Shown here one piece after another: positions 9,733 to 59,633 of a stretch of 64,000 bases of DNA. The stretch covers positions 129,702-193,701 of the forward strand of contig CAZCYZ010000001.1 of NCBI GenBank assembly GCA_964503465.1, written 5' to 3'. Positions within the stretch are counted from its first letter, which is position 1. The number at the start of each line of letters is the position of its first letter. A model generated the notes under the pieces. That model ran no database searches. It had not been told where the DNA came from and saw only the letters and a program-made list of their open reading frames with translations. Source of the DNA: an uncultured Gammaproteobacteria bacterium (GTDB lineage: Bacteria; Patescibacteriota; Microgenomatia; UBA12405). The position numbers and the translations under genes are program-made.

Positions 9733-10290
9733 ATGAAAAATAACTCTGCTCTCAAGATTCTTTTTCTCTACAACTCAATTTTCGTTTTTGCTAACAATCT
9801 TATTGGCCCACTTTTTGCTCTTTACCTTCAAGGTTTTCATTCCAGTACTGTTACTATTAGCTTTACCTGGGCAGTTTTTGTTTTCTTTACGACCATTTTT
9901 ACTTATCTTTTTTCGAAGTTTGGCGATCGAATTAAAGAACAAGAATATACCCTTATGGCCGGCTTCCTTATTCGTTCCATCGTCTGGTTTCTCTATATTT
10001 TTACTGATTCACTCTCGATGGTGGTTGTGCTTCAAGTTGTTTTGGCCTTGGGGGAAGCCTTGGGTTCTCCAAGTTTTGACACCATCTTGTCTCAACATCT
10101 CGACGATGGTAGTCAAGTAGCCGAATATTCCACCTGGCGAGTCATGGCCAATTTATCAATGGCCCTGGCCACCATCATCGGTGGTTTTGTTGTTGCCAAG
10201 TTTGGTTTTCAGGTTTTATTTGTTGTTATGTCTCTTTTGGGTCTTTTTGCTTTTTTTGGCGTGCTCTCCAAACCCCGGGAGTTGCTGTAA
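9733..10290 (+). CDS. Small ~6-TM membrane protein, half-MFS-like
   Basis: 185 aa hydrophobic ORF starting 1 nt after the previous stop. Weak resemblance to an MFS half-transporter. Confidence 0.3.
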   Translation: MKNNSALKILFLYNSIFVFANNLIGPLFALYLQGFHSSTVTISFTWAVFVFFTTIFTYLFSKFGDRIKEQEYTLMAGFLIRSIVWFLYIFTDSLSMVVVLQVVLALGEALGSPSFDTILSQHLDDGSQVAEYSTWRVMANLSMALATIIGGFVVAKFGFQVLFVVMSLLGLFAFFGVLSKPRELL

Positions 10291-10297
10291 ATCTCCT

Positions 10298-12190
10298 ATG
10301 TCCGATATTCTTGATGGTCTGAACCCTCAGCAAAAAGAAGCTGTGACTCACATTGGTTCACCTCTCCTTGTTCTGGCTGGTGCCGGTTCAGGTAAAACCA
10401 GAGTTTTAACCCATCGAGCGGCATATTTTGTTCACCAAAAACTTGCCAAACCATCTGAAATCTTGCTTTTAACCTTTACTAACAAGGCCGCTGGCGAAAT
10501 GAAAGACCGTATGTCCAAATTGTTAACATCAACAATTAACAAGTCGCCATCCGACAACCTGTTTGCAGGTACCTTTCATTCTTTCTGTTGTTCAGTTCTT
10601 CGTCGGCATGGATCGTATGTTGGCATCCCTCACAACTTTGTTATTTACGATACCGATGATCAGGAAAACACTATTAGTTTAATTCTCAAAGACATTGGTT
10701 TTACCCCCAAAGAATTTAAACCGAGTAGTGTTCTCTATTTTATTGAATCCGCCAAAAACAATTTCCTGACTCCCAAAGAGGCCAGGCAACAAGCTTCCGG
10801 TTTTTGGGCTGAACATGCGGCCAAAATTTATCAACTTTACCAAAACAAGTTGACTGAATTTCAGGCCCTAGACTTTAATGATCTAATTTTTAGGACTATC
10901 GAACTTTTTTATCAAAGTCCAGAAATTCTTGACAAATATCAGGATCAATATCGTTATATTTTAATTGACGAATATCAGGATACTAATCAAACCCAGTACC
11001 TGTTAACCAAACTCTTATCGCTTAAACATCATCAAATTACTGTTGTTGGTGATGCGTCCCAGGCTATTTACGGCTGGCGTGGCGCCGATTATCACAACCT
11101 TGACAGCTTTCTTCGCGATTTTAACGATACCAAGGTTGTTAATCTTGAGGAAAATTATCGTTCGACTCAAACCATCTTGGATGCCGCCAATTCGGTTATC
11201 TCCAAAAATAATTCTCATCCTATTCTTAAACTTTTCACTCTCAAACAATCGAACGATAAGATTAAAATTTTTGAGGCCGAATCCGAAATTGCCGAGGCCG
11301 ATTATCTTTCCGATCGAATTAATTTTTTGGTCAACACCCATCGCATTCCTCATCGGGCTATTGCCGTCCTTTATCGAATGAATGCCCAATCGCGTGTTAT
11401 CGAAGAGTCCTTTCTAAAAAACAACATTCCCTACGTTCTAATTGGTGGCCTTCGTTTTTATGAGCGGGCCGAAATCAAAGATATTCTCGCCATGGTTCGT
11501 TTCGCTGTTAATCATCAAGACCAGGTATCGTATGGCCGACTCACTAAAACATTTGGTAAAAAACGATTGTTTAGTTTTGAAAACTACTTAAAGGATGTCG
11601 ACTTGTCTGACCTTTCCTCGCTTCAAATTCTCGAGTCGTTAGTCCTTAATTCCGGTTACCTTGACCGTTTCGATCCAAAAGATGATGACGATCAACGTCG
11701 AATCGAAAACATTAAGGAACTCAAGTCCGTTGCTACTTCCTTTCCCAAGATTAACGACTTTTTAGAAAACATTGCCTTGGTTCAAGCCGAATATAGTCAG
11801 CAGGAAAAATCCAAGAGAAAGGAAAAGCGCGACGGCATCAGGCTGATGACTCTTCACAGCAGTAAAGGATTAGAGTTTGAAGCGGTTTTTTTGGTCGGTT
11901 TTGAAGAGGGGATATTGCCCCATTCACGAAGCATGGTCGACGATTCCGATATCGAAGAAGAAAGGCGCCTTTGTTATGTTGGTATCACTCGGGCCAAAGA
12001 TTATCTTCACCTCTCCTATGCTTCCCGTCGTCTCTATTTTGGCCGCTCATCATTAAACGAACCTTCCCGTTTCCTGGCCGATATTCCAAACAACTTAATC
12101 GAATTTGACCAGGTTGCTAATATTACTCGAGACTATCGCCATCGTCAGGATTCTGGTGACGATCTTACTTATGATCCAGATATATACTAA
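10298..12190 (+). CDS. uvrD: ATP-dependent DNA helicase UvrD/PcrA family
   Basis: MSDILDGLNPQQKEAV start, Walker A AGAGSGKTRVLT, DEYQDTN, helicase motifs V/VI (TLHSSKGLEFEAVF, YVGITRA). The ORF-track N-terminal extension (10181) is rejected. Confidence 0.85.
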   Translation: MSDILDGLNPQQKEAVTHIGSPLLVLAGAGSGKTRVLTHRAAYFVHQKLAKPSEILLLTFTNKAAGEMKDRMSKLLTSTINKSPSDNLFAGTFHSFCCSVLRRHGSYVGIPHNFVIYDTDDQENTISLILKDIGFTPKEFKPSSVLYFIESAKNNFLTPKEARQQASGFWAEHAAKIYQLYQNKLTEFQALDFNDLIFRTIELFYQSPEILDKYQDQYRYILIDEYQDTNQTQYLLTKLLSLKHHQITVVGDASQAIYGWRGADYHNLDSFLRDFNDTKVVNLEENYRSTQTILDAANSVISKNNSHPILKLFTLKQSNDKIKIFEAESEIAEADYLSDRINFLVNTHRIPHRAIAVLYRMNAQSRVIEESFLKNNIPYVLIGGLRFYERAEIKDILAMVRFAVNHQDQVSYGRLTKTFGKKRLFSFENYLKDVDLSDLSSLQILESLVLNSGYLDRFDPKDDDDQRRIENIKELKSVATSFPKINDFLENIALVQAEYSQQEKSKRKEKRDGIRLMTLHSSKGLEFEAVFLVGFEEGILPHSRSMVDDSDIEEERRLCYVGITRAKDYLHLSYASRRLYFGRSSLNEPSRFLADIPNNLIEFDQVANITRDYRHRQDSGDDLTYDPDIY

Positions 12191-28418: not shown

Positions 28419-28686
28419 ATTGCCACTCTTCCTCTGGCTGTTGTTTGTTCTAGGAGTTATTTTTGTCCCTCCAAGCTCACCAGTTGTGGTAATTACTTTT
28501 TTTCTCCTCTTATTCTTGTGTCTTTTTGGAACCATAGGAATTTTCGTTCGTCCATTTCGTCGTCGATTAGTTCTTAGTCTCTGTCCAATTATTATTCTAG
28601 GATTACTTTTTGGTCGCCTTTTAAGCCCCATTAGTTTGGTTCTGGTTCTCGCTTTGACCTTCATTTTCCTCCTTGACACCCGTTAG
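28369..28686 (+). CDS. Possible small polytopic membrane protein
   Basis: Hydrophobic ORF overlapping the rmuC 3' end. A more likely start is in-frame TTG at 28420, right after the rmuC stop. The antisense ORF 28362..28679 is Arg-rich and rejected. Confidence 0.25.
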   Translation: MLKKSTLKTKILRPSNKLPLFLWLLFVLGVIFVPPSSPVVVITFFLLLFLCLFGTIGIFVRPFRRRLVLSLCPIIILGLLFGRLLSPISLVLVLALTFIFLLDTR

Positions 28687-28709
28687 CAGTCAGCATATTA
28701 TATTGCTAA
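28683..28709 (+). promoter_or_regulatory. Degenerate CIRCE operator (HrcA binding site) immediately upstream of hrcA
   Basis: TTAGCAGTC-N9-TATTGCTAA versus consensus TTAGCACTC-N9-GAGTGCTAA. Abuts the hrcA ATG at 28711. Confidence 0.4.
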
Positions 28710-36272: not shown

Positions 36273-36302
36273 TTGTGAAAGTGGCCGGATTAATGCTATA
36301 AT
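36273..36302 (+). promoter_or_regulatory. Putative sigma70-type promoter for rpsO-pnp (TTGTGA-N18-TATAAT with TG-extended -10)
   Basis: Hexamers seen ~80 nt upstream of the rpsO ATG. Confidence 0.3.
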
Positions 36303-36379: not shown

Positions 36380-36649
36380 ATGGCTCTATCCAAACAGGAC
36401 AAGCAGGACATTATTACCAAATTTTCTCAAGCTAAGGGTGATACCGGTTCTCCCGAAATTCAAGTCGCTATTCTTAGCCTTGAAATCACCAGGCTCCAGG
36501 AACATTTAGCCGCCAACAAACACGACTCACCGGCCAAACGTGGTCTATTAAGTAAAATTGCCAAACGTCGCCGATTATTACGTTATCTTTCTGCTCACAA
36601 TCCAGAACGTTACACCAAACTCACCAAAGACCTTGGTCTCAAGAAATAA
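36380..36649 (+). CDS. rpsO: 30S ribosomal protein S15
   Basis: 89 aa. Typical S15 sequence ending ...LSKIAKRRRLLRYL. Confidence 0.9.
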   Translation: MALSKQDKQDIITKFSQAKGDTGSPEIQVAILSLEITRLQEHLAANKHDSPAKRGLLSKIAKRRRLLRYLSAHNPERYTKLTKDLGLKK

Positions 36650-36675: not shown

Positions 36676-38841
36676 ATGAACAAACAAACATTTGATATTT
36701 CTATTGGCAGTCAGGTTATCACTTTAACCACTGGCTACCTTGCTCCTCAAGCCACCGCTGGAGTGTTGGCCAAATCCGGCAACACTGTCGTTTTGGCCAC
36801 TGTGGTTATGGGTAAGGTCGATGAAACCAAAGATTATTTTCCCCTTTCAGTTGAATTTGCCGACAAGCTTTATGCTGGTGGTGTGATTAAAGGTGGCAAA
36901 TGGGTCAAACGCGAACTCAATCCATCAGACAATTCAATCCTCTTTGGTCGAATCATTGATCGTTCGGTTCGCCCTTTGTTCCCAGCTGATTTCCATCACG
37001 AGGTTCAAATCATTGTTACTGTTTTAAGTAATGACAAGGAAAATGACGTTATTGTCCCGGCTTTCTTGGCCGCTTCTACCGCTTTAAGTATCTCCAAGAT
37101 TCCTTTTAATGGTCCTGTATCCGCTATCCGTGTAGCCCAGGTTGATGGCAAACCAATCGTCGGTCCGACCTCGTCCACCCTCCAGTCATCAAAATTTGAT
37201 CTGCTCGTTTGTACTGGGGTTGCTGGCGTCAACATGATCGAGGCCAGTGCCGATATTGTTGACAACCAAACCATGTTAGATGCCATTACCCTAGCTAAGG
37301 AAACAGCTGATCAGGTTAACCAGCAAATTCAGGGGATTGTTGCCAAAATTGGTCAGGAAAAAGTTAAATACGAATCATATGCCCCATCAGACAAGTTATT
37401 GTCGGAAATTGAGAAATTTGTTAGCCAAGATCTAGTCGAGTTTTTCAAGAATGGTATGGATGGCAATCATCAAACTGCCGAGGAACTAATTATTGATAAA
37501 GTTCTAGAAAAATATCAAGCCCAAATAAAATCAGAAGAAATTACCAAAACCCAACTAATTTCTGCTGTTGATATCTTGGTCGGCCGATACTTTCGACAGC
37601 AAACTCTTGCTGGTCAGCGCTATGACAAGCGTCAATTTGACGAAATCAGACCACTTCACCTTGAAGTTGGAGTTCTTCCCTGTACTCACGGTAGTGCCCT
37701 CTTTCAACGCGGCCTGACTCAAGCCTTAACTACCACCACTCTTGGGCCTCTAGCCGACAAACAATATCTCGAAGACTCGATGGGTGAAACCACCAAGCGT
37801 TACCTTCACTATTATTCCGCTGCTCCTTTTTCTACAGGTCAAACCGGTCGCTTTGGCCGTCCTGGTCGACGGGAAATTGGCCATGGTGCCCTAGCCGAAA
37901 AAGCTCTTATACCAGTCATCCCTTCGGAAGATGACTTTCCTTACACTATCGTCTTGACGTCCGAAGTAATGTCTCAAAATGGCTCATCCTCTATGGCCTC
38001 TACTTGCGGCTCGACCCTTAGTCTTCTTGATGCTGGTGTTCCCATCAAGGACAAAGTTGCTGGCATCTCCGTTGGTATGATTTCCGACAATAGCGGTAAA
38101 TATATTCTGCTAACCGATATTGCCGGGATCGAAGATCATCATGGTGACATGGATTTCAAAATTACTGGTACCAAGAATGGCATTACTGCCATTCAGCTTG
38201 ACATCAAACGTCCCGGTTTGACTCTACCAATGATTGCCGACACTTTTGTTGCTAGCACCAAAGCCAGACTTCAAATCCTCGAAACGATTGAAAAAACCAT
38301 GCCTACCCCTCGTCCACAACTGTCTCCATTTGCTCCAAAAATTAAATTGGTCAAAATCCCAGAAGACAAAATTGGTGAGGTCATTGGATCAGGGGGCAAA
38401 ACTATCAAAGCTCTGATGGTCAAGTATGCAGTTCAAATCGATATTGACGATGATGGTCGGGCTTCAATCTCATCTCTTGACGAAACCAGTATTGCCAACG
38501 CTGCTTTTGAGATCGAATCCATGGTTAGAGATATTAATGTTGGTGAGGAGTTCGATGGTATTGTTACTCGCGTCGAAAACTTTGGTGCTTTCATTGAATT
38601 TTTGCCAGGCCGTGAGGCTCTACTGCATGTCTCTGAAATGAGTGGTGGATTTCTATCTGACCCATCGACCATCATCAAGGTTGGGGATCCAATCCATGTC
38701 AAAGTTTCTGGTTTTAACGACAACCACCAAATCAAATTATCTGCCCCAGCTTTTAAAGCCGCCCACCCTGGTCAACCCAGAAGCAATAATCCCAGTCGGG
38801 TCCAATTTTCCAAATTCTCTTCTCCTCGTCCCCATCGCTAA
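36676..38841 (+). CDS. pnp: Polyribonucleotide nucleotidyltransferase (PNPase)
   Basis: Two RNase PH domains, KH (KIGEVIGSGGKTIK) and S1 domains. Conserved rpsO-pnp synteny. Confidence 0.95.
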   Translation: MNKQTFDISIGSQVITLTTGYLAPQATAGVLAKSGNTVVLATVVMGKVDETKDYFPLSVEFADKLYAGGVIKGGKWVKRELNPSDNSILFGRIIDRSVRPLFPADFHHEVQIIVTVLSNDKENDVIVPAFLAASTALSISKIPFNGPVSAIRVAQVDGKPIVGPTSSTLQSSKFDLLVCTGVAGVNMIEASADIVDNQTMLDAITLAKETADQVNQQIQGIVAKIGQEKVKYESYAPSDKLLSEIEKFVSQDLVEFFKNGMDGNHQTAEELIIDKVLEKYQAQIKSEEITKTQLISAVDILVGRYFRQQTLAGQRYDKRQFDEIRPLHLEVGVLPCTHGSALFQRGLTQALTTTTLGPLADKQYLEDSMGETTKRYLHYYSAAPFSTGQTGRFGRPGRREIGHGALAEKALIPVIPSEDDFPYTIVLTSEVMSQNGSSSMASTCGSTLSLLDAGVPIKDKVAGISVGMISDNSGKYILLTDIAGIEDHHGDMDFKITGTKNGITAIQLDIKRPGLTLPMIADTFVASTKARLQILETIEKTMPTPRPQLSPFAPKIKLVKIPEDKIGEVIGSGGKTIKALMVKYAVQIDIDDDGRASISSLDETSIANAAFEIESMVRDINVGEEFDGIVTRVENFGAFIEFLPGREALLHVSEMSGGFLSDPSTIIKVGDPIHVKVSGFNDNHQIKLSAPAFKAAHPGQPRSNNPSRVQFSKFSSPRPHR

Positions 38842-38862: not shown

Positions 38863-39924
38863 ATGCCCGATTCTCCGTTAACGATAGATGAAGCTATTAA
38901 TAGGCTGATTGCCAAGTCTCAGTCAGTTAAGTTACCCCCTGGTTTACTTAGCAAACTCGAAGAACTTTTTGGGGAATTACGAATCAATGCTAACTCGCCC
39001 CAGACTTTCTGGCAAAGTTATCAAGTGGTCAGCAAATATCTCGACTGGATTGTTTCCCTTCCTTGGTTTTCCAAAACTGACGACATCCTTGATATTGATC
39101 ATGCTCGTCAACAGTTAAATCTCAATCATTATGGCCTTGATGCTGCTAAAGAAAGAATTCTTGAGTTTATTGCTGTTCTTGCTCTTCAGCAACACCGTCA
39201 TCCGGAAGCCAAACCTCATGCCCCAGTACTTCTTTTTACTGGTTTGGTTGGCACCGGCAAAACCACTCTTGCCCGTTCCATTGCTCACGCCCTTGGTCGT
39301 CAGTTTATTCGTATTCCTTTCGGCGGTTTGGGGGACCCTCTCTATCTTCGTGGTCGTTCTCGAATTTATCCCGAAGCCGAGCCTGGCGCCATCATCAAAG
39401 GTCTAATATCAGTCAAAAGTAACAACCCGGTTATCTTATTGGACGAGATCGATCGTATTGCCGACGATGCCCTCAACACCATTATGGGAGTTTTGGTTGA
39501 ACTTCTTGATCCGGAACAGAACAATCATTTTGTTGACCATTATCTTGATTATCCTTTTGATCTTAGCAATTGTCTTTTTTGTGCCACTTGTAATAACACC
39601 ACTCGTATTGCCACTGCCGTTATGGACCGGCTCGAAGTTATCCAAATGCCTTCTTACACTGACGAGGAAAAGACTATCATCGGCCGTGACTATATTCTCC
39701 CCAAGGCAATTATCGAATCCGGACTCAATCCGGAGGAAATTACTATTTCTCCTGACGTTTGGCCAAATATTGTCCGGCCGTTAGGTTTTGATGCCGGTGT
39801 CAGAACTCTTAAACGCAATATTGAAGGATTGTGCCAAAAAGCCGCTCGTCAAATTCTTGAAGGTCGAGCTCAAAAAATTACTATTGATGACTCCAATGTT
39901 AAATTATTTGTCCCCCAGTGGTAA
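38863..39924 (+). CDS. Stand-alone Lon-like AAA+ ATPase module (no LAN domain, no S16 protease domain)
   Basis: LDAAKERILEFIAVL...LLFTGLVGTGKTTLARSIAHALGRQFIRIPFGGLGDPLYLRGRSRIY...GAIIKGL...NPVILLDEIDRI...LLDPEQNNHFVDHYLDYPFDLSNCLFCATCN...MDRLEVIQMPSYTDEEK aligns nearly motif-for-motif with the Lon A-type ATPase domain. Ends at 353 aa. Confidence 0.65.
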   Translation: MPDSPLTIDEAINRLIAKSQSVKLPPGLLSKLEELFGELRINANSPQTFWQSYQVVSKYLDWIVSLPWFSKTDDILDIDHARQQLNLNHYGLDAAKERILEFIAVLALQQHRHPEAKPHAPVLLFTGLVGTGKTTLARSIAHALGRQFIRIPFGGLGDPLYLRGRSRIYPEAEPGAIIKGLISVKSNNPVILLDEIDRIADDALNTIMGVLVELLDPEQNNHFVDHYLDYPFDLSNCLFCATCNNTTRIATAVMDRLEVIQMPSYTDEEKTIIGRDYILPKAIIESGLNPEEITISPDVWPNIVRPLGFDAGVRTLKRNIEGLCQKAARQILEGRAQKITIDDSNVKLFVPQW

Positions 39925-40003: not shown

Positions 40004-40588
40004 ATGAAACAAGACCCATTTCTTATTCCCGTTCTACTGGCCATTATTTTTGTTTCTATTTTGGGCAATATTTATCTTTATTTTCATAAAAATATCAATT
40101 TCTCTCCCACCCCATTTGACACCAGCATTCTTATCACTCCTACTCTTTACCCCTCCTTGGTGCCAACTATCCCAGCCACCACTTCGACCTCGGTTAATGG
40201 ACTTGTGACATACACCAATCGGGAGGATGGCCTAAGTTTTCAATATCCCGAAGATTGGTACTTTGATGGTGGTGTCCTCTCAAACTATGACCCATCCAAT
40301 AGAGGTCCAGTAGAATCCCACCAGGGTGACATTAAGTGTGACCTGTTTGCCGCCAAGTTTGTGGATGAATCGACGTTGGTTGGGACAAAACAACTCAAAA
40401 TCAATTCAAAAAGTACAATTTACCAATCTAAACTACAATCCGAATTATATGAAGATATTTTTTACACTGTTTTTAGCATTTATTCCCCAAATAAATCAAA
40501 GTTAAATCATTTCATCTGCTACTCACTCGCCCAAAACCAGATTCAGGCCTTCTATAAGGTACTTAGCTCTTTTGAATTTATCAACTAA
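40004..40588 (+). CDS. Small secreted/membrane-anchored protein, tandem paralog A (xYPxxW domain signature)
   Basis: N-terminal TM PVLLAIIFVSILGNIYLYF, DTSILITPTLYP, FQYPEDW. Confidence 0.4.
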   Translation: MKQDPFLIPVLLAIIFVSILGNIYLYFHKNINFSPTPFDTSILITPTLYPSLVPTIPATTSTSVNGLVTYTNREDGLSFQYPEDWYFDGGVLSNYDPSNRGPVESHQGDIKCDLFAAKFVDESTLVGTKQLKINSKSTIYQSKLQSELYEDIFYTVFSIYSPNKSKLNHFICYSLAQNQIQAFYKVLSSFEFIN

Positions 40589-41214
40589 TGTCTACTAATT
40601 CATTAAGTCCAAAACTAGTACCCATTCTCCTCGCCATTATTTTTGTTTCTATTTTGGGCAATATTTATCTTTACTTTACTCGGAACCAGCCATTTACTCC
40701 TTTAGTTCCCGATACCAGTATTTTTATCACCCCCACTCCTTATCCCCCAACTGCCACCCCAATAACCCGGCAACAATATCAACACTCCCGACTCAAGTAC
40801 CAAATTAGTTACCCTTCATCCTGGCAATTAGAAGTCGACGGGCAATACCCGGATATAGTTAACCTTACTCTCGGTGATCTGGCTAGAATTACTATCGACC
40901 CTACCAACCAACTACAAATTACCCCCACGATTAAACAGTGGGTCGAAAAAACTAACCATCAAACCTCCACCGATCCCAATCGCAAGTCATTTTCGTCGCT
41001 TTTAACCATTCTTCCCGATGACGGTCTCATTACCAATCAAGTGGGTAAGTCACTTGTCATTTTGGACGAAGGTTTTTTTGAACAAAACGGCAAGCAATAT
41101 CTTTTTACTCGCGGTAATACAATTTATAATCTTACCGCTGTTTATTACGGTGAAAACTCTTCAGCCTCCATCGACATCAATGGCATCGTTTCTAGTCTCA
41201 AGTTTATTGATTAG
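40588..41214 (+). CDS. Small secreted/membrane-anchored protein, tandem paralog B
   Basis: Shares a near-identical ~45-nt stretch (gccattatttttgtttctattttgggcaatatttatcttta) and the TM/ITPTPYP/YPSSW architecture with paralog A. Its start overlaps A's stop. Confidence 0.4.
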   Translation: MSTNSLSPKLVPILLAIIFVSILGNIYLYFTRNQPFTPLVPDTSIFITPTPYPPTATPITRQQYQHSRLKYQISYPSSWQLEVDGQYPDIVNLTLGDLARITIDPTNQLQITPTIKQWVEKTNHQTSTDPNRKSFSSLLTILPDDGLITNQVGKSLVILDEGFFEQNGKQYLFTRGNTIYNLTAVYYGENSSASIDINGIVSSLKFID

Positions 41215-41338: not shown

Positions 41339-43075
41339 ATGAATCAAATCAATCAATTTCAGGGTCTAAAAAACCCCGTTCGTCAGTTTAACTCCCAAAA
41401 CGATTCAGTTCGTATTAGTTCACTGGGCGGTTTTGGTGACGTTACTCAAAACATGTTCGTTTATGAGTATGCTCCCAATGGTGACTTTACCAAAAGCGAA
41501 ATTATTATTGTTGACTGTGGTGTCGGTTTTCCCGAAGAAGACGCTTTTGGTGTTGATCTTCAAATTCCCGATACTACTTATCTTACCGACAAGAAAGATC
41601 GAATCAAAGCTATTTTTATTACTCACGGTCACGAGGATCATATTGGTGCTGTCAGATTTATTTTGCCAATTTTGGGTAAGGATATCCCCATTTATGCCCC
41701 TCGTCTGGCCGCCGCCTTTATTCAGGCTCGTTTGGAAGAATTCAACATTCGTCCCAAGCTTGAAGTAATTCAAGATGGTATTTCTATCATCAAAAGTCCT
41801 TTCACTGTTGAGCCAGTTCGAGTAACCCACTCCGTCCCTGATACTTATCATTATGCTATTCACACCCCAGTTGGTATTTTTTACCACGGGAGTGATTTCA
41901 AGTTTGATCTTTTCCCTCTCGACGGTGTTCAGGCTGATCTCCGTCGTATTGCCGCCGTTGGTGGTCAGAATGTAGTTTGTCTTCTTTCTGATTGTCTCGG
42001 GGCCGATCATGAAGGCTATTCGCCCTCCGAAGGTGCTATTGCCGAAAACTTTGAACGAGAAATAAAAACTGCCAAAGGGCGAGTCTTTGTCACTGCCATC
42101 AGTAGTAACATTGTCCGTTGGAGTCAGGCTATTGATTGTGCCAAAAAAGTTGGTCGTAAAATAGTTATTGTTGGTATGTCGGTTGACAAGGCCATTAGAA
42201 TTGCCAAAGAGCTGGGTTATGTTCATTTGGTCGAATCCGATATCATTCCCGTCGAGAAAGTTCGTAATTTTTCTGACAACAAACTAATTTTTCTGACCGC
42301 CGGTTTTGCTGGACAACCAGATTCGGCTCTTTCCAAAATGACTATGGGCAAACATCGGATCAAAATAAAATCTGGTGATAAGGTTATTTTCTCTTCACCC
42401 GATTACATTCCCGGTACCACTACCGCCATTTTTGACATGATTGACAACCTTTCTCGGCTTGGAGCTGAGGTTGCCTACGGTGAAAAAGAAGAACTTCATG
42501 TTAGTGGTCATGGTTATCAAAAGGAACATGCTCTTTTAATCCAGCTACTTCATCCCAAATATCTTCTTCCCATTGGTGGCAACTACCGTCATGTCAAAAG
42601 TTATCAGACTATGGCTAAAAGTTTAGGTTTTAACGACAATCAGTTTATTGCTCCCGATCACGACTCTTCGGTCACTTTTCACGGGGATCGCTCCTTTGAC
42701 ACCAGCTTTAGAATCCCTCTTCGTAAAGTTTTGATTGACGGACTTGGGGTGGGGGATGTTGGCACTACCGTTCTTCGTGACCGTAAACTTTTAGCTGAAG
42801 ATGGTATGTTTAGTGTTGTTGTCTTAGTCGACAAAGAACATGGCAAACTTTACCAGGAGCCCGTTATTCTTAGCCGAGGTTTTGTTTTTGTCAAAGAAAA
42901 TACTGACCTTTTAAATTACTTAAAGCAGGAGGTTACCAATAAGTTTCAACAGCTTGCCAGCAAACCGGCTAATCTTGATTACATTCGCACCGAGCTCCAA
43001 TCGTATCTTGAGGGAATTATCATGGAAAAAACCGGCCGTCAACCTATGGTGCTACCTCTAGTTATCGAGATTTAA
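41339..43075 (+). CDS. rnj: Ribonuclease J (metallo-beta-lactamase/beta-CASP)
   Basis: ITHGHEDHIGA motif, beta-CASP region, ~578 aa. Confidence 0.85.
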   Translation: MNQINQFQGLKNPVRQFNSQNDSVRISSLGGFGDVTQNMFVYEYAPNGDFTKSEIIIVDCGVGFPEEDAFGVDLQIPDTTYLTDKKDRIKAIFITHGHEDHIGAVRFILPILGKDIPIYAPRLAAAFIQARLEEFNIRPKLEVIQDGISIIKSPFTVEPVRVTHSVPDTYHYAIHTPVGIFYHGSDFKFDLFPLDGVQADLRRIAAVGGQNVVCLLSDCLGADHEGYSPSEGAIAENFEREIKTAKGRVFVTAISSNIVRWSQAIDCAKKVGRKIVIVGMSVDKAIRIAKELGYVHLVESDIIPVEKVRNFSDNKLIFLTAGFAGQPDSALSKMTMGKHRIKIKSGDKVIFSSPDYIPGTTTAIFDMIDNLSRLGAEVAYGEKEELHVSGHGYQKEHALLIQLLHPKYLLPIGGNYRHVKSYQTMAKSLGFNDNQFIAPDHDSSVTFHGDRSFDTSFRIPLRKVLIDGLGVGDVGTTVLRDRKLLAEDGMFSVVVLVDKEHGKLYQEPVILSRGFVFVKENTDLLNYLKQEVTNKFQQLASKPANLDYIRTELQSYLEGIIMEKTGRQPMVLPLVIEI

Positions 43076-43476
43076 AAATATTTCTCCAATCGTCTCAAAG
43101 TATCATCAGTAGGGGTATTAGATACTTGTCTGACCGCTAAATCCACTGACGTCCATCCGTCGCCACCGATTCTTTTAACCTGAATTCGACCTCCCTCTCT
43201 GTCGGCTACTCGACGCAGTTCTTGTTGTAGAGCGTGAAGTTCAGCGTAAGCCCTAGGCTCATCTAGTCCCCCGCCATGTAACCGTTGTCTTTTCCCAGAT
43301 ATCGTCACTATGGCTGTTCCATCTTTTCCTGCAGTTTTTAGAATATCCTCCGCTTCATCATATCGCACTCTAATCTTTGCCGGCTTTCTCGGGACTACTC
43401 TGTCCCTGGTTGGCCCCCAGTTAATCTCTTGAGCCTCTGCTTCGGTGGCTCTTCTAATCATCGTTACTGGACTCAT
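43072..43476 (-). CDS. Small basic hypothetical protein (134 aa) translationally coupled downstream of the cyclase; weak Smr-like motifs
   Basis: Start overlaps the cyclase stop by 4 nt. Arg-rich. VTISGKRQRLHGGG and IGGDGWTSVDL faintly resemble the Smr HGxG/GGDG-T-V-L motifs, which is unverified. Convergently abuts the rnj stop. Confidence 0.4.
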   Translation of the reverse strand: MSPVTMIRRATEAEAQEINWGPTRDRVVPRKPAKIRVRYDEAEDILKTAGKDGTAIVTISGKRQRLHGGGLDEPRAYAELHALQQELRRVADREGGRIQVKRIGGDGWTSVDLAVRQVSNTPTDDTLRRLEKYF

Positions 43477-44267
43477 TTTTTGAAATTAACCGGTAATCTT
43501 CTAATTTGAACCGTTGGTGTCGGGGCAGGGAATACCCTTGATCTAATTAAATTCTTTGTTTTTATTGGCAATTTACTCCAAGCAAATACCACCACTACTA
43601 CTATCAGGGCTAAATACAACAATTTCACAATTCCTGGAAACGATTCTTCCTCCGTGGTCCTGTCGCTGGTGTTGTGTTTGTCTTTATCCAAATTAGCATG
43701 TTGGTATGTCTTCTCGCTTCGAGCACTTTTGTGTTTATCCATTGCTCCCTCTTCTTGCAACACCTTATATACCTTTACCTGATCAGCAATTCCCTTAAGA
43801 TAACGATAACCAATCTCTGCCGTTGGCACCTCGTTTTTATTCATTGCCAGGTATACCGCTTCTGTGAAATACACCTCCCCCGGTTCGGCAATCGACTCGA
43901 TTCTTGAAGCAATATTGACCGGTTCCCCAAAAACATCATCGTCCTTAAGGTTTACTTCCCCAAAGTTCACTGCGATCCTTAGTTCAAACTTCTCATCTTC
44001 GTTCGCGTCATGGTTGTGCTTAGCAATTGTTTCCTGAACCTTGACTCCGCACAGTACTGCATTAGTCGGGGATTCGAAAGTTACCAAATAGGCGTCACCA
44101 ATAGTTTTAACTATTGTTCCATCGTACTGTCCAAATATTGGCCGCACCACTTCATCTTGAATCTCCAGTAAATGCTGTATTTCTTCTCGTGATTCAAGCG
44201 AAGTTCTGGTCGTAAACCCTTTCATGTCGGTAAACATTATCGCCAGCCCTTTGGTCTTTGCCCCCAT
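43473..44267 (-). CDS. Class III nucleotidyl (adenylyl/guanylyl-type) cyclase catalytic domain with C-terminal single TM anchor
   Basis: CHD motifs LAIMFTDMKGFT, KTIGDAYL, RIAVNFGEV, GEPVNIASRIES. C-terminal hydrophobic IVKLLYLALIVVVVVFAW segment and short basic tail. Confidence 0.8.
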   Translation of the reverse strand: MGAKTKGLAIMFTDMKGFTTRTSLESREEIQHLLEIQDEVVRPIFGQYDGTIVKTIGDAYLVTFESPTNAVLCGVKVQETIAKHNHDANEDEKFELRIAVNFGEVNLKDDDVFGEPVNIASRIESIAEPGEVYFTEAVYLAMNKNEVPTAEIGYRYLKGIADQVKVYKVLQEEGAMDKHKSARSEKTYQHANLDKDKHNTSDRTTEEESFPGIVKLLYLALIVVVVVFAWSKLPIKTKNLIRSRVFPAPTPTVQIRRLPVNFKK

Positions 44268-57160: not shown

Positions 57161-57721
57161 ATGGATTCAAATCAACAGTACCAAGATATTCTTGATCAAT
57201 ATCAAAAGACTTTTAGTAATCCGCCTTCACCCTCAGTACCAGCCCCCCCTCAACCACTCGAATCAGTACCTCCATCTCCAGTACCTCCTCCTTCACCTGT
57301 TTTACTTCCACCTGTTTCACCCCCACCCATATCACCGCCACCACAACCGGTTTTACCTCCACCCCCACCTGTTCAAGCCCTGACTAAGCCAAGTAAGGAC
57401 TCAACTATTTTCTTTAAAATTTTGTTTATCCTTTCCTTTCTTCTATTTTTAGGAGTTGCTGCTGCCGTTGTTTATAATCTCCTAAGCCAACAATTGGGGT
57501 CAAACCCTCTTCCTATCAAAAAAATTACTACCACCCCATCGGAAACGCCCACTCAAGCAGTTTCTTTTTGCGAACTCAACGATCAACGTTACCAAGTCGG
57601 TCAATCATTTCCCGCCGCCGATGGCTGCAATACCTGTACTTGTCTTGAGGACTTAACTATTAGTTGCACCGAACTTTCTTGTGACATTACTCCTGCAGTT
57701 TCTCCGGTAAATGGATCATAA
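57161..57721 (+). CDS. Pro-rich membrane-anchored protein with C-terminal six-Cys module
   Basis: PPSPVPPPSPVLLPPVSPPPISPPPQP tract, TM ILFILSFLLFLGVAAAVV, C-terminal CELNDQRYQVGQSFPAADGCNTCTCLEDLTISCTELSCD. Confidence 0.4.
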   Translation: MDSNQQYQDILDQYQKTFSNPPSPSVPAPPQPLESVPPSPVPPPSPVLLPPVSPPPISPPPQPVLPPPPPVQALTKPSKDSTIFFKILFILSFLLFLGVAAAVVYNLLSQQLGSNPLPIKKITTTPSETPTQAVSFCELNDQRYQVGQSFPAADGCNTCTCLEDLTISCTELSCDITPAVSPVNGS

Positions 57722-59633
57722 CCGTCCCCGAATAATTATTTTTCTTTTTGTACTTATTGCCATTATTTTTGTCGATATTTTATTGGTCATTTATCGTCGG
57801 CAGTCCCCTCCTGCCCCAACATCCCCCGATCTCACCTCCACTTGGAAGACCTACGAGAACAAAGAATACGGATTCTCGCTTGAGTATCCGGGTCAGTATG
57901 GTCTTAAGTCGGACACGACCAACAATCTAACCAATATTGTATCCTCCGACTACCGCGACGACTCCTACGACTCCGAACCTGGTGCGGCATATCAATACGC
58001 CTCAGCAATGTTCGGAATATCAGTTGAAGATCGTGCTTGCACTCCGCCGTCCGTAGACACATCTAACCCATCTTCGGCAAAAACCACCATCGTTTCAACC
58101 AAGGATGTTGCAACAGGTGTTGTGTACGGATTTCAAAGTTACCCAGATAACTACAGTTTGTTCCAGGCTAGAATGTTCAATAACAAGTGCCTAGTTATTT
58201 CTTGTTTATCTTCAACCAAAGGTTGTTTGGAAAATGAAGTCAGTGAGGAATTTAACCAAATCCTTTCTACTCTTCAGTTTGCTGATCCTGCCTCTACCTG
58301 GAAAACATACGAAAACAAAAAATATGGTTTTTCTTTGCAGTATCCAAGTACATGGACTGTGGAAGAAAGTACAAATTCATCCCCCTCGGTCTCCTTCAAC
58401 CCTCATATAGATTCTCCCCACCTGGCCGGCCCAATAGAACCAAAAGCAGTCCCGTATGAATTAACAATTGATAAAACCAATGATAATTTTGACAAGTGGA
58501 AACAAAGGAATAATTTTCTCCCTGATATAAAGTTTTCCGTCCTGAAGATAAATAACTTGAATTTATATATTACCCGAGATCTACCGGATATGTTTGGTAA
58601 TTATGATGTCTTTGTAGATTATCCGGATGGCAGTGGTTTATTGAGATTTACTTTGTTTCCCGTCGAGGATGATCAGGAGTTAGATAACAAAATAATATCT
58701 ACTTTTAACCAAATTCTCTCCACTTTTAAATTTCTTGACACCCCCGATCTCACCTCCACTTGGAAGACATACGAGAACAAAGAACTTGGAATTAGTTTGA
58801 AGTATCCGTCGTCTTGGTACCCAGAAGGTAATTTCTTAATGCACGAAACCTGCAAAGCAAACACTAGCTGCCTGACATTGTCATTCAGTTTGACACCAAA
58901 ATCACTTCAACAATTAACCTCCGAGATTGCCATTAATGATGGTGCAGTCGACAATACCGACACCAAACCTACCCCGGTTATGGTCAACAACTTGTCTGGT
59001 TTCGAGCTTGTATACGGTGATGCCATGGGCTTAGGTAACCGAAAAATATATCTTAGTCGTCTCAACCAAAATCTTTTGATCGAACACATTATTCATGAAT
59101 CGAATCTAAAATCACAAATTAACCAAATCCTAGCCACTCTCGTCTTTAATCCCCTCGACTCTACCTCCACCTGGAAAACCTACGAAAATAAAGAGTACAA
59201 CTTTACTTTCAAATACCCGGCTACACTTAAGTTAGAACAAAATTATAATTCCCAAGATCACAAGAATTATTACGTTTCCCTTAGTAACTACAGTGAAGAC
59301 CAAACCCAGATACTACATGTATCTGAGAACTACATAAAGATCGAATTTATCACCGAAGATCTCTCCTCTGTTTCTAACATTTCTGAATTTGCCAACGACC
59401 CCAACATATTTTTACGCCACGTCAAAGACCAGCACCTTTCTGGCAATGATCCAACTAGTGCACAATCCCAAGTCATCGGCGGCCATAACTGTTGGTATAT
59501 CAAAGGGTCAGACACATCAGTTCATTGCTTTGATTCAGTTCATAAGAGGGAGTTCATCATTAGTAGAGGCATCCCCACTATTGCTTCACTGTCCGTTTTT
59601 GATCAAATTTTATCAACTCTAAAATTCCTTTAA
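57711..59633 (+). CDS. Secreted protein made of four tandem ~140-aa repeats (each 'TSTWKTYENKEYGFSLxYP ... NQILSTLKF')
   Basis: N-terminal TM/signal. Four copies of STWKTYENK(E/K)(Y/L)GFSL(E/Q/K)YP at aa ~40, ~205, ~345 and ~485. Each repeat ends (F/I)NQIL(S/A)TL(K/Q/V)F. Confidence 0.55.
   Translation: MDHNRPRIIIFLFVLIAIIFVDILLVIYRRQSPPAPTSPDLTSTWKTYENKEYGFSLEYPGQYGLKSDTTNNLTNIVSSDYRDDSYDSEPGAAYQYASAMFGISVEDRACTPPSVDTSNPSSAKTTIVSTKDVATGVVYGFQSYPDNYSLFQARMFNNKCLVISCLSSTKGCLENEVSEEFNQILSTLQFADPASTWKTYENKKYGFSLQYPSTWTVEESTNSSPSVSFNPHIDSPHLAGPIEPKAVPYELTIDKTNDNFDKWKQRNNFLPDIKFSVLKINNLNLYITRDLPDMFGNYDVFVDYPDGSGLLRFTLFPVEDDQELDNKIISTFNQILSTFKFLDTPDLTSTWKTYENKELGISLKYPSSWYPEGNFLMHETCKANTSCLTLSFSLTPKSLQQLTSEIAINDGAVDNTDTKPTPVMVNNLSGFELVYGDAMGLGNRKIYLSRLNQNLLIEHIIHESNLKSQINQILATLVFNPLDSTSTWKTYENKEYNFTFKYPATLKLEQNYNSQDHKNYYVSLSNYSEDQTQILHVSENYIKIEFITEDLSSVSNISEFANDPNIFLRHVKDQHLSGNDPTSAQSQVIGGHNCWYIKGSDTSVHCFDSVHKREFIISRGIPTIASLSVFDQILSTLKFL

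Follow-up and report, generated by a model that had tools for sequence, protein, structure and literature searches.

What might the ATPase of a Lon protease do in a bacterium that encodes it without the protease? This question is raised by a gene in a 64,000-nucleotide stretch of assembly GCA_964503465.1 (contig CAZCYZ010000001.1, positions 129,702-193,701, forward strand), hereafter called the window. According to the current classification of these enzymes, every Lon (types A, B, BA and C) consists of an ATPase (A) domain followed by a protease (P) domain in one chain (PMC9569914). The initial annotation of the window had described an open reading frame of 353 amino acids on the plus strand as a Lon ATPase module lacking the protease domain; this reading frame was confirmed exactly at 38863-39924, and the Walker A (GLVGTGKTT) and Walker B (VILLDEID) motifs assigned to it were located at residues 127-135 and 190-197, respectively. 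In this gene, a classic protein-degrading machine appears to have turned into a non-degrading ATPase. The gene and its main structural parts are as follows.

38863..39924, plus strand: protease-less LonA-type AAA+ ATPase gene, complete, with ATG start, 353 codons and TAA stop
38863..39198, plus strand: helical region equivalent to NTD3H, residues 1-112, from the secondary structure of the model and the Lon alignment
39649..39882, plus strand: AAA+ lid (small alpha subdomain, Pfam Lon_lid), residues 263-340, with sensor-2 R314

The protein is a Lon ATPase module without protease domain

Pfam searches of the 353-residue protein yielded matches to AAA (residues 123-261, E-value 1.8e-18) and Lon_lid (residues 285-337, 6.3e-11) and nothing else; neither Lon_C nor the LAN domain (PF02190) was matched. 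The match to the NCBIfam model TIGR00763 'lon' (E-value 1.5e-92) was confined to model positions 253-572 of 795, and the scores stayed below the LonA equivalog cut-offs (311.4 bits versus 608 for TIGR00763 and 228 versus 891 for NF008053). In the PDB, the best approximately 30 matches were all LonA proteases, always within their ATPase part, with 3M6A of B. subtilis (4.5e-72), 7FD4 of Meiothermus, 6ON2 of Y. pestis and human LONP1 as top structures. A profile built from 38 full-length Lons was then searched against all open reading frames of the window in six frames (stop to stop, at least 40 amino acids, E-value of at most 1). Its sole match in the 64 kb was the ATPase reading frame itself, at profile positions 252-578 of 783, and no LAN or S16 domain was found in any of the six frames. 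The absence of a protease or LAN domain and of a continuation in another frame, as originally annotated, was thus borne out by this search. Since pnp ends 21 nucleotides upstream of the gene, there is also no room for the LAN and coiled-coil N-region of a Lon.

By its sequence, the protein clearly is a Lon-type AAA+ module of the HCLR clade. The annotation that it starts right at the AAA+ module has to be corrected, however. In an AlphaFold2 model computed with 86 family sequences (predicted local distance difference test score (pLDDT) 92.6, predicted template modelling score 0.87), the first ~110 residues are predicted to form five helices (residues 8-20, 28-44, 46-65, 78-88 and 93-112) that are equivalent to NTD3H of LonA, a bundle described as integral to the AAA+ cassette (bioRxiv 10.1101/2024.06.24.600538; PMC7239648). 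The model superposes on the ATPase modules of LonA and LONP1 with template modelling (TM) scores of 0.76-0.87.

The protein shares with LonA the NTD3H, the AAA+ core and the Lon-type lid at 34-46 % identity (E-value ~1e-70), including the residues of Walker A and B, sensor-1, arginine finger, sensor-2 and PS1-beta-hairpin. It differs from LonA in lacking all three of the LAN globular, coiled-coil and S16 Ser-Lys protease domains, as well as in its GLVGTGKTT P-loop, a replaced loop after Walker B, an unconserved pore pair and a P-Q-W tail. In extent, the natural 353-residue protein is essentially the laboratory construct 6N2I, an engineered AAA+ fragment of E. coli Lon with 338 resolved residues in a 344-residue chain; in the structure search, residues 12-345 of the protein matched residues 14-334 of this chain, and the model superposes on it with a TMq of 0.83 and a TMt of 0.86. 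Whereas 6N2I was produced by artificially truncating a protease, the window protein is a natural, conserved product with a signature and tail of its own.

Members of the family are conserved in length and sequence across species

The close family of the protein comprises 120 database clusters of 348-358 amino acids with 67-100 % identity, and Lon_C or LON_substr_bdg was absent from all 120 according to Pfam. Where named, these close members come from Candidatus Shapirobacteria or Woesebacteria and bear the NCBI label 'AAA family ATPase'. When one genome per GTDB species was scanned with two family-specific peptides, including the pattern NTIMGVLV, at least 135 species representatives turned out to have a relative, with orthologs of 352-358 amino acids in Ca. 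Shapirobacteria and Woesebacteria, the best 80 loci being 63-72 % identical to the window protein. A wider family of 120 further clusters, mostly of 347-365 amino acids (range 340-471), was found using a profile of distant members. Its identity to the window protein is 41-58 % among those measured, the taxa named are Gottesmanbacteria, the Microgenomates group and Shapirobacteria as well as Dojkabacteria, and the Pfam content is AAA plus Lon_lid only, with no S16. In all the extended variants and Dojkabacteria proteins that a representative library clustered at 50 % added to the family, the Lon homology ends at the lid.

These data bear directly on the idea, raised in the initial annotation, that the gene is a recent truncation, a pseudogene, or an assembly or frameshift artefact of a normal lon. 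The sole point in its favour is that the protein ends at the junction of the A and P domains. The same length and C-terminus recur in at least 135 species, however, and the stop codon occupies one and the same position in 85/85 loci (TAA in 71, TAG in 11 and TGA in 3). No S16-like sequence follows the gene in any frame, here or at the 85 loci, and the full-Lon profile detected neither S16 nor LAN in the 1.38 Mb around the 85 orthologs (10 kb to either side of each). Identity to the window gene at codon positions 1, 2 and 3 is 69, 83 and 45 % over the 85 loci, a pattern that is characteristic of purifying selection. In addition, independent assembly of a public read set gave an identical protein (L001), and the family is monophyletic. 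Truncation or artefact is thereby refuted, and we leave it practically no probability.

In the phylogenetic comparison with LonA that had been proposed along with the annotation, the protease-less set split off: in an unrooted neighbour-joining tree of the shared region, with the full-length set picked by similarity to the query, one bipartition separated 34 protease-less from 45 full-length LonA sequences in 100/100 bootstraps. As far as sequences can tell, this pattern is consistent with a single, old loss of domains. The nearest full-length Lons are from Clostridiales, Spirochaetes, Anaerolineales and Ktedonobacterales and not from the Candidate Phyla Radiation (CPR). Because all of them are ~43-46 % identical to the protein, no specific donor or sister stands out.

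Some family members (P0132, P0140, P0143, P0149, P0175 and P0165) carry extensions. These are P/Q/T-rich, of low complexity and N-terminal in some proteins (up to ~350 residues in proteins of 453-669 amino acids), and long, S/N-rich, of low complexity and C-terminal in members from Dojkabacteria, which suggests lineage-specific disordered appendages on one common ATPase core. Database proteins of 890-1675 amino acids with two or three tandem Lon-type AAA+ modules (P0121-P0142) were considered as fused relatives and rejected, as they are canonical Lon proteases with GPPGVGKTS P-loops and with S16 following the modules in those scanned. They would be 'multi-ring' Lon proteases, unless they are gene-fusion artefacts.

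The ATPase residues are retained and the pore loops are altered

Alignment columns were counted in the 120 close members, in the 120 wider members and in 38 canonical Lons. The roles of the residues follow those defined for Y. pestis Lon (PMC7239648), whose numbering is offset by 229 from that of the window protein. The relevant elements of the gene are listed here.

39241..39267, plus strand: Walker A/P-loop GLVGTGKTT, residues 127-135 (GPPGVGKTS in canonical Lon)
39355..39387, plus strand: pore-loop-1 equivalent RSRIYPEAEPG, residues 165-175, with Y169-P170 at the Tyr-Ile/Val site
39430..39453, plus strand: Walker B VILLDEID, residues 190-197, with catalytic D194 and E195, invariant in 240/240
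39457..39525, plus strand: segment after Walker B, residues 199-221, IADDALNTIMGVLVELLDPEQNN, in which the canonical [FY]-R-G-D-P is replaced
39592..39594, plus strand: sensor-1 asparagine N244 (Y. pestis N473), invariant in 240/240
39628..39630, plus strand: trans-acting arginine finger R256 (Y. pestis R484), invariant in 240/240
39802-39804, plus strand: sensor-2 R314 (Y. pestis R542), invariant in 240/240

Within the P-loop, G127, G130, G132, K133 and T134 are likewise invariant in 240/240 family members; judged from the alignment, the residue set for ATP hydrolysis is complete in the protease-less family. Y59 and W62, which the common Y-[IL]-D-W motif aligns with Y. pestis Y294 and W297, are at least 90 % conserved, and the PS1-beta-hairpin residues E218, Y227 and D229 are kept (for E447, Y456 and E458).

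Pore loop 1 has changed. Its substrate-translocation pair is Y398/I399 in Y. pestis Lon (PMC7239648). The tyrosine position is occupied by Tyr in 38/38 canonical Lons, by Tyr in 83, His in 34 and Asn in 3 close members, and by Arg in 60, Ser in 27 and His in 11 wider members; the residue after it is Val, Ile or Leu in 38/38 canonical Lons versus Pro in 111/120 close and 102/120 wider members. Thus, no conserved aromatic-hydrophobic pair of the LonA type was found. The G-A-M-P-G stretch of canonical Lon reads [DE]-A-E-P-G in the protease-less family. After Walker B, the canonical [FY]-R-G-D-P (with G in 36, D in 38 and P in 37 of the 38 canonical sequences) is replaced by L-N-T-I or R-A-S-I, and the stretch A-D-D-A-L-N-T-I-M-G-V-L-V is near invariant and specific to the family.

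The C-terminal tail is a candidate docking site

The reading frame ends in a short conserved motif.

39913..39921, plus strand: C-terminal tripeptide P-Q-W with the stop codon directly after it, candidate docking tail, PQW in 120/120 close homologs

The position of P-Q-W corresponds to the linker between the A and P domains of LonA. The ends found at the 85 loci are PQW in 84 cases and PKW in one, and most of the wider clades have tails such as P-[ST]-W, E-S-Y, Q-M-Y, Q-A-W or Q-D-F. The last 10-residue block is the least confident part of the otherwise well-predicted model, with a pLDDT of 68. As terminal motifs that are invariant yet flexible usually mark interaction sites, we read P-Q-W in this way; alignment and model together suggest that a partner probably docks there.

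The partner could be a peptidase. The ATPase would then be the unfoldase half of a split Lon or an HslU-like system, with the peptidase, be it an orphan S16, HslV, ClpP or a 20S-like ring, encoded elsewhere, and P-Q-W would insert into it in the manner of the HslU tails and of the HbYX tails found in proteasomal ATPases. Docking of AAA+ rings onto peptidases by their tails is established for HslUV and PAN-20S, and the C-terminal tail of HslU binds and activates HslV, which makes it a possible analogy for the P-Q-W tail. An invariant, flexible, aromatic-ending tail exactly at the junction of the A and P domains, with related tails in most of the wider clades, would suit such a role, as would the intact set of ATPase residues and Y169 of the window protein. 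On the other hand, there is no peptidase gene in the window and no S16 within 10 kb of any of the 85 orthologs, the translocation pair of pore loop 1 is not conserved (His or Asn in 37/120 close members; Arg, Ser or His in wider members), the loop that follows Walker B has been remodelled, and a clade found next to groESL does not have the aromatic tail. We therefore consider a split protease unlikely. HslU and ClpX, like Lon members of the HCLR clade of AAA+ proteins (PMC7239648), resemble the protein as stand-alone ATPase polypeptides, but this is a functional analogy only: sequence and fold searches match Lon and not HslU or ClpX, the window protein has no I-domain, zinc-binding domain or IGF loop, and the pore-loop aromatics that are strictly conserved in HslU and ClpX are not conserved in the protease-less family.

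The gene is embedded in an RNA-decay context or adjoins groESL

In the window, a CIRCE-like site, hrcA, grpE, dnaK, dnaJ, nusA, infB, a DHH-like gene, rpsO, pnp and the ATPase gene follow each other in this order and in the same direction. Downstream of the ATPase gene, there are two genes for small membrane-anchored proteins and rnj, then proS, ftsK and alaS, with rpoB last. The elements next to the ATPase gene are the following.

36273-36302, plus strand: promoter-like site before rpsO, from a simple scan
36380-36649, plus strand: rpsO
36676-38841, plus strand: pnp, ending 21 nucleotides before the ATPase gene
41339..43075, plus strand: rnj (RNase J), downstream of the ATPase gene

Neither a terminator-like nor a promoter-like site was called in the 21 nucleotides between pnp and the ATPase gene. 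Because of this short spacer and the lack of a terminator-like site in it, we infer that rpsO, pnp and the ATPase gene are probably co-transcribed as one operon. The same simple scan placed a second good promoter-like site before rnj.

This arrangement is widely shared. In Shapirobacteria and Woesebacteria, pnp was found upstream of the ATPase gene and on its strand in 78/78 informative species loci, and rnj downstream, also on that strand, in 73/73; 0-3 unrelated, variable genes are inserted per side between the ATPase gene and pnp or rnj. The core of rpsO, pnp, ATPase gene and rnj is kept in members at 50-56 % protein identity and, at locus L090, within different outer flanks. In one distant member, pnp is not found upstream and the order ATPase gene, UDG and rnj is kept; in another, the ATPase gene is located 4.6 kb downstream of pnp, without rnj. 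The second recurrent context was found in a clade of three (P0349, P0299 and P0271), in which the ATPase gene is divergent from groES-groEL across an intergenic region of ~100-125 bp; the outer flanks of the three loci are unrelated to each other.

L087, 6585-8047: groESL-adjacent locus
L089, 5595-7050: groESL-adjacent locus
L092, 4873-6470: groESL-adjacent locus

The first of these two contexts suggests RNA decay and the second protein folding; neither comes with a protease. At L087 and L089, a common stretch TTGTCAA...TCTGCTAA...ATG was seen just before the start of the ATPase gene. Visual inspection of the intergenic regions between groES and the ATPase gene at these two loci showed no CIRCE, and control of the window's ATPase gene by HrcA and CIRCE was rejected, as the sole CIRCE-like element of the window lies 10 kb upstream, before hrcA.

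The position between pnp and rnj raises the possibility of an accessory role in RNA decay, in which the ATPase would be dedicated to PNPase and/or RNase J within a degradosome-like assembly and would use ATP to remodel ribonucleoproteins or to regulate the nucleases. This explanation overlaps with that of a non-proteolytic remodelling factor. In addition to the constancy of the two neighbours and of their strand, it draws on the core that persists at 50-56 % identity within different outer flanks, on the retention of UDG and rnj where pnp is not upstream, and on spacers to pnp of 2-21 nucleotides with no terminator between. Furthermore, the AAA+ and lid domains of Lon are known nucleic-acid binders, and the lid-only PDB entries 4git and 1x37 were among the structure matches. 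However, nusA-infB-rpsO-pnp is an ancient and conserved cluster, so that the position next to it could be inherited without any functional link, and one clade has the ATPase gene at groES-groEL instead. The protein is also acidic, with a pI of 5.5 (family medians 5.5-6.0), and the basic patch that is reported to bind DNA in E. coli Lon (around residues 306-311) has an acidic S-x-D-I-L-D as its counterpart here. On balance, an RNA-decay accessory seems improbable to us. A more specific proposal, which we put forward as speculative and doubtful, is that a whole CPR lineage has made Lon into a non-proteolytic machine: after loss of the substrate-recruiting N domain and of the protease, rebuilding of the pore loops and gain of the P-Q-W tail, the motor would serve the PNPase/RNase J apparatus as an accessory subunit driven by ATP, a minimal 'degradosome' ATPase replacing or supplementing DEAD-box helicases, and would be a partner of the folding machinery in the groESL clade.

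The gene neighbourhood is also informative with regard to a role in anti-phage defence, as the initial annotation had mentioned a relationship to BrxL or similar Lon-like ATPases. BrxL is comparable insofar as it is a Lon-related AAA+ protein used outside classical proteolysis, but differs in retaining a Lon-protease-like C-terminal domain. A search with PADLOC returned weak, partial and generic AAA+ matches to DolB (6.7e-9) and IetA (4.6e-6), as well as a weak generic AAA match to TRIP13, but no match to BrxL. The gene is embedded among core housekeeping genes (dnaK, nusA, infB, rpsO, pnp, rnj, proS and ftsK) and not borne on an island, is syntenic across species and keeps a fixed position in the species examined, whereas a patchy distribution of sites is typical of mobile defence islands. 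A relationship to BrxL or to defence is thus not supported, and its probability appears negligible.

The protein as a proposed non-proteolytic derivative of LonA

The reading that we prefer, and to which we give about an even chance on the basis of sequence and gene context, is that the protein is a free-standing, ATP-hydrolysing and non-proteolytic LonA derivative that acts as a remodelling, chaperone-like or regulatory factor. A LonA motor would have become fixed in the Microgenomates/Dojkabacteria part of Patescibacteria after loss of the LAN and coiled-coil N-region and of S16, a loss that would be old and probably single. The protein would form an oligomer that hydrolyses ATP but has given up the degradation of polypeptides. 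Assembly into a ring is suggested by the conserved arginine finger, since this residue acts in trans, and processive threading of polypeptides has probably been lost because neither the Tyr-Ile 'pincer' in pore loop 1 nor the loop following it is conserved. The P-Q-W tail would dock the protein onto a partner, and the client or partner most likely belongs to RNA decay or protein folding. Among the options of the initial annotation, the chaperone-only Lon derivative is the one best supported, namely by the intact ATPase residues, the relaxed pore loops and the groESL neighbour; the chaperone activity itself is what we infer from them.

Several observations weigh against this reading. Gene order within one lineage is weak evidence for function, and the two contexts point to different processes. 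The residues that brace pore loop 1 (E218, Y227, D229 and R167) are all kept, and the tyrosine at the pore-loop position of the window protein (Y169) and of 83/120 close orthologs may leave room for some threading ability. The N domain of LonA, normally the substrate recruiter, is missing, which leaves no obvious client-binding site, and in LonA much of the hexamer interface is supplied by the protease ring. Finally, the negative result on a peptidase applies to the 64-kb window and to the 10 kb on either side of the orthologs.

With regard to the known types of Lon, the protease-less family is the reverse of LonC. In LonC, e.g. that of Meiothermus taiwanensis, the protease is kept and the AAA-like domain is degenerate and inactive; the two are mirror images, with the ATPase lost in one and the protease in the other. 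LonB and LonBA are defined by S16 together with an insertion that anchors them in the membrane and is located within the AAA+ module or N-terminal to it (PMC9569914), whereas the window protein aligns almost without gaps to soluble LonA through the AAA+ core, shows no inserted hydrophobic segment in the model and has no S16. The family does not fall under the definition of a Lon protease, as there is no S16, no LAN, a score below cut-off and an unconserved pore pair. JGI labels protease-less proteins of this kind 'ATP-dependent Lon protease', a label that would wrongly credit the organisms with Lon proteolysis. In the literature that we covered, which did not comprise all journals, no description of a protease-less Lon in CPR/Patescibacteria was found. 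The family is not a new kind of system; it is a taxonomically broad and well-supported oddity. That a large, old and conserved family keeps the Lon motor alone implies that this motor has a selectable function of its own, which bears on the long-debated protease-independent 'chaperone' and nucleic-acid roles of Lon. The family also offers a natural system in which the ATPase mechanics of Lon can be studied apart from proteolysis, and a new approach to the proteostasis and RNA decay of CPR bacteria with reduced genomes.

Other features of the window

The two genes directly downstream of the ATPase gene had been annotated as unrelated small secreted paralogs.

40004-40588, plus strand: small protein of 194 amino acids, with a divergent, weakly PsbP_2-like ectodomain
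40588-41214, plus strand: small protein of 208 amino acids, with a divergent, weakly PsbP_2-like ectodomain
28683-28709, plus strand: inverted repeat TTAGCAGTCAGCATATTATATTGCTAA, CIRCE-like (3 mismatches to the consensus; chance expectation 0)

The likeness of the two small proteins is real but confined to the N-terminal membrane anchor (70 % over 40 amino acids), so that the description as paralogs holds for this part only. They were rejected as partners of the ATPase, since they are not conserved and have matches only in the same organism (L001) and, weakly, at L033. Because other species hold different genes there, the interval from the ATPase gene to rnj is a site of variable gene insertion. 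A 640-amino acid protein encoded at 57711-59633 also has PsbP_2.

The CIRCE-like repeat lies directly before hrcA (28711), the first gene of the hrcA-grpE-dnaK-dnaJ operon, and for this reason the CPR genome seems to keep HrcA/CIRCE heat-shock control. Throughout the window (1-64000), nearly all genes are on the plus strand, yet each 2-kb bin has a negative GC skew (-0.002 to -0.34), so that C exceeds G on the coding strand over the whole 64 kb. Among the few minus-strand blocks is 43072-44267, between rnj and a SIMPL/DUF541 gene, with a gene for a 264-amino acid adenylate/guanylate cyclase-domain protein with a C-terminal membrane segment, which overlaps an open reading frame of 134 amino acids (no Pfam match) by 4 nucleotides. 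At 9733-10290 on the plus strand, an open reading frame of 185 amino acids matches only the first half of the MFS_1 model and overlaps the start of a PcrA/UvrD-type helicase reading frame (10181-12190, plus strand) by ~110 nucleotides; either it is the remnant of a truncated transporter or the start of the helicase is mis-set.

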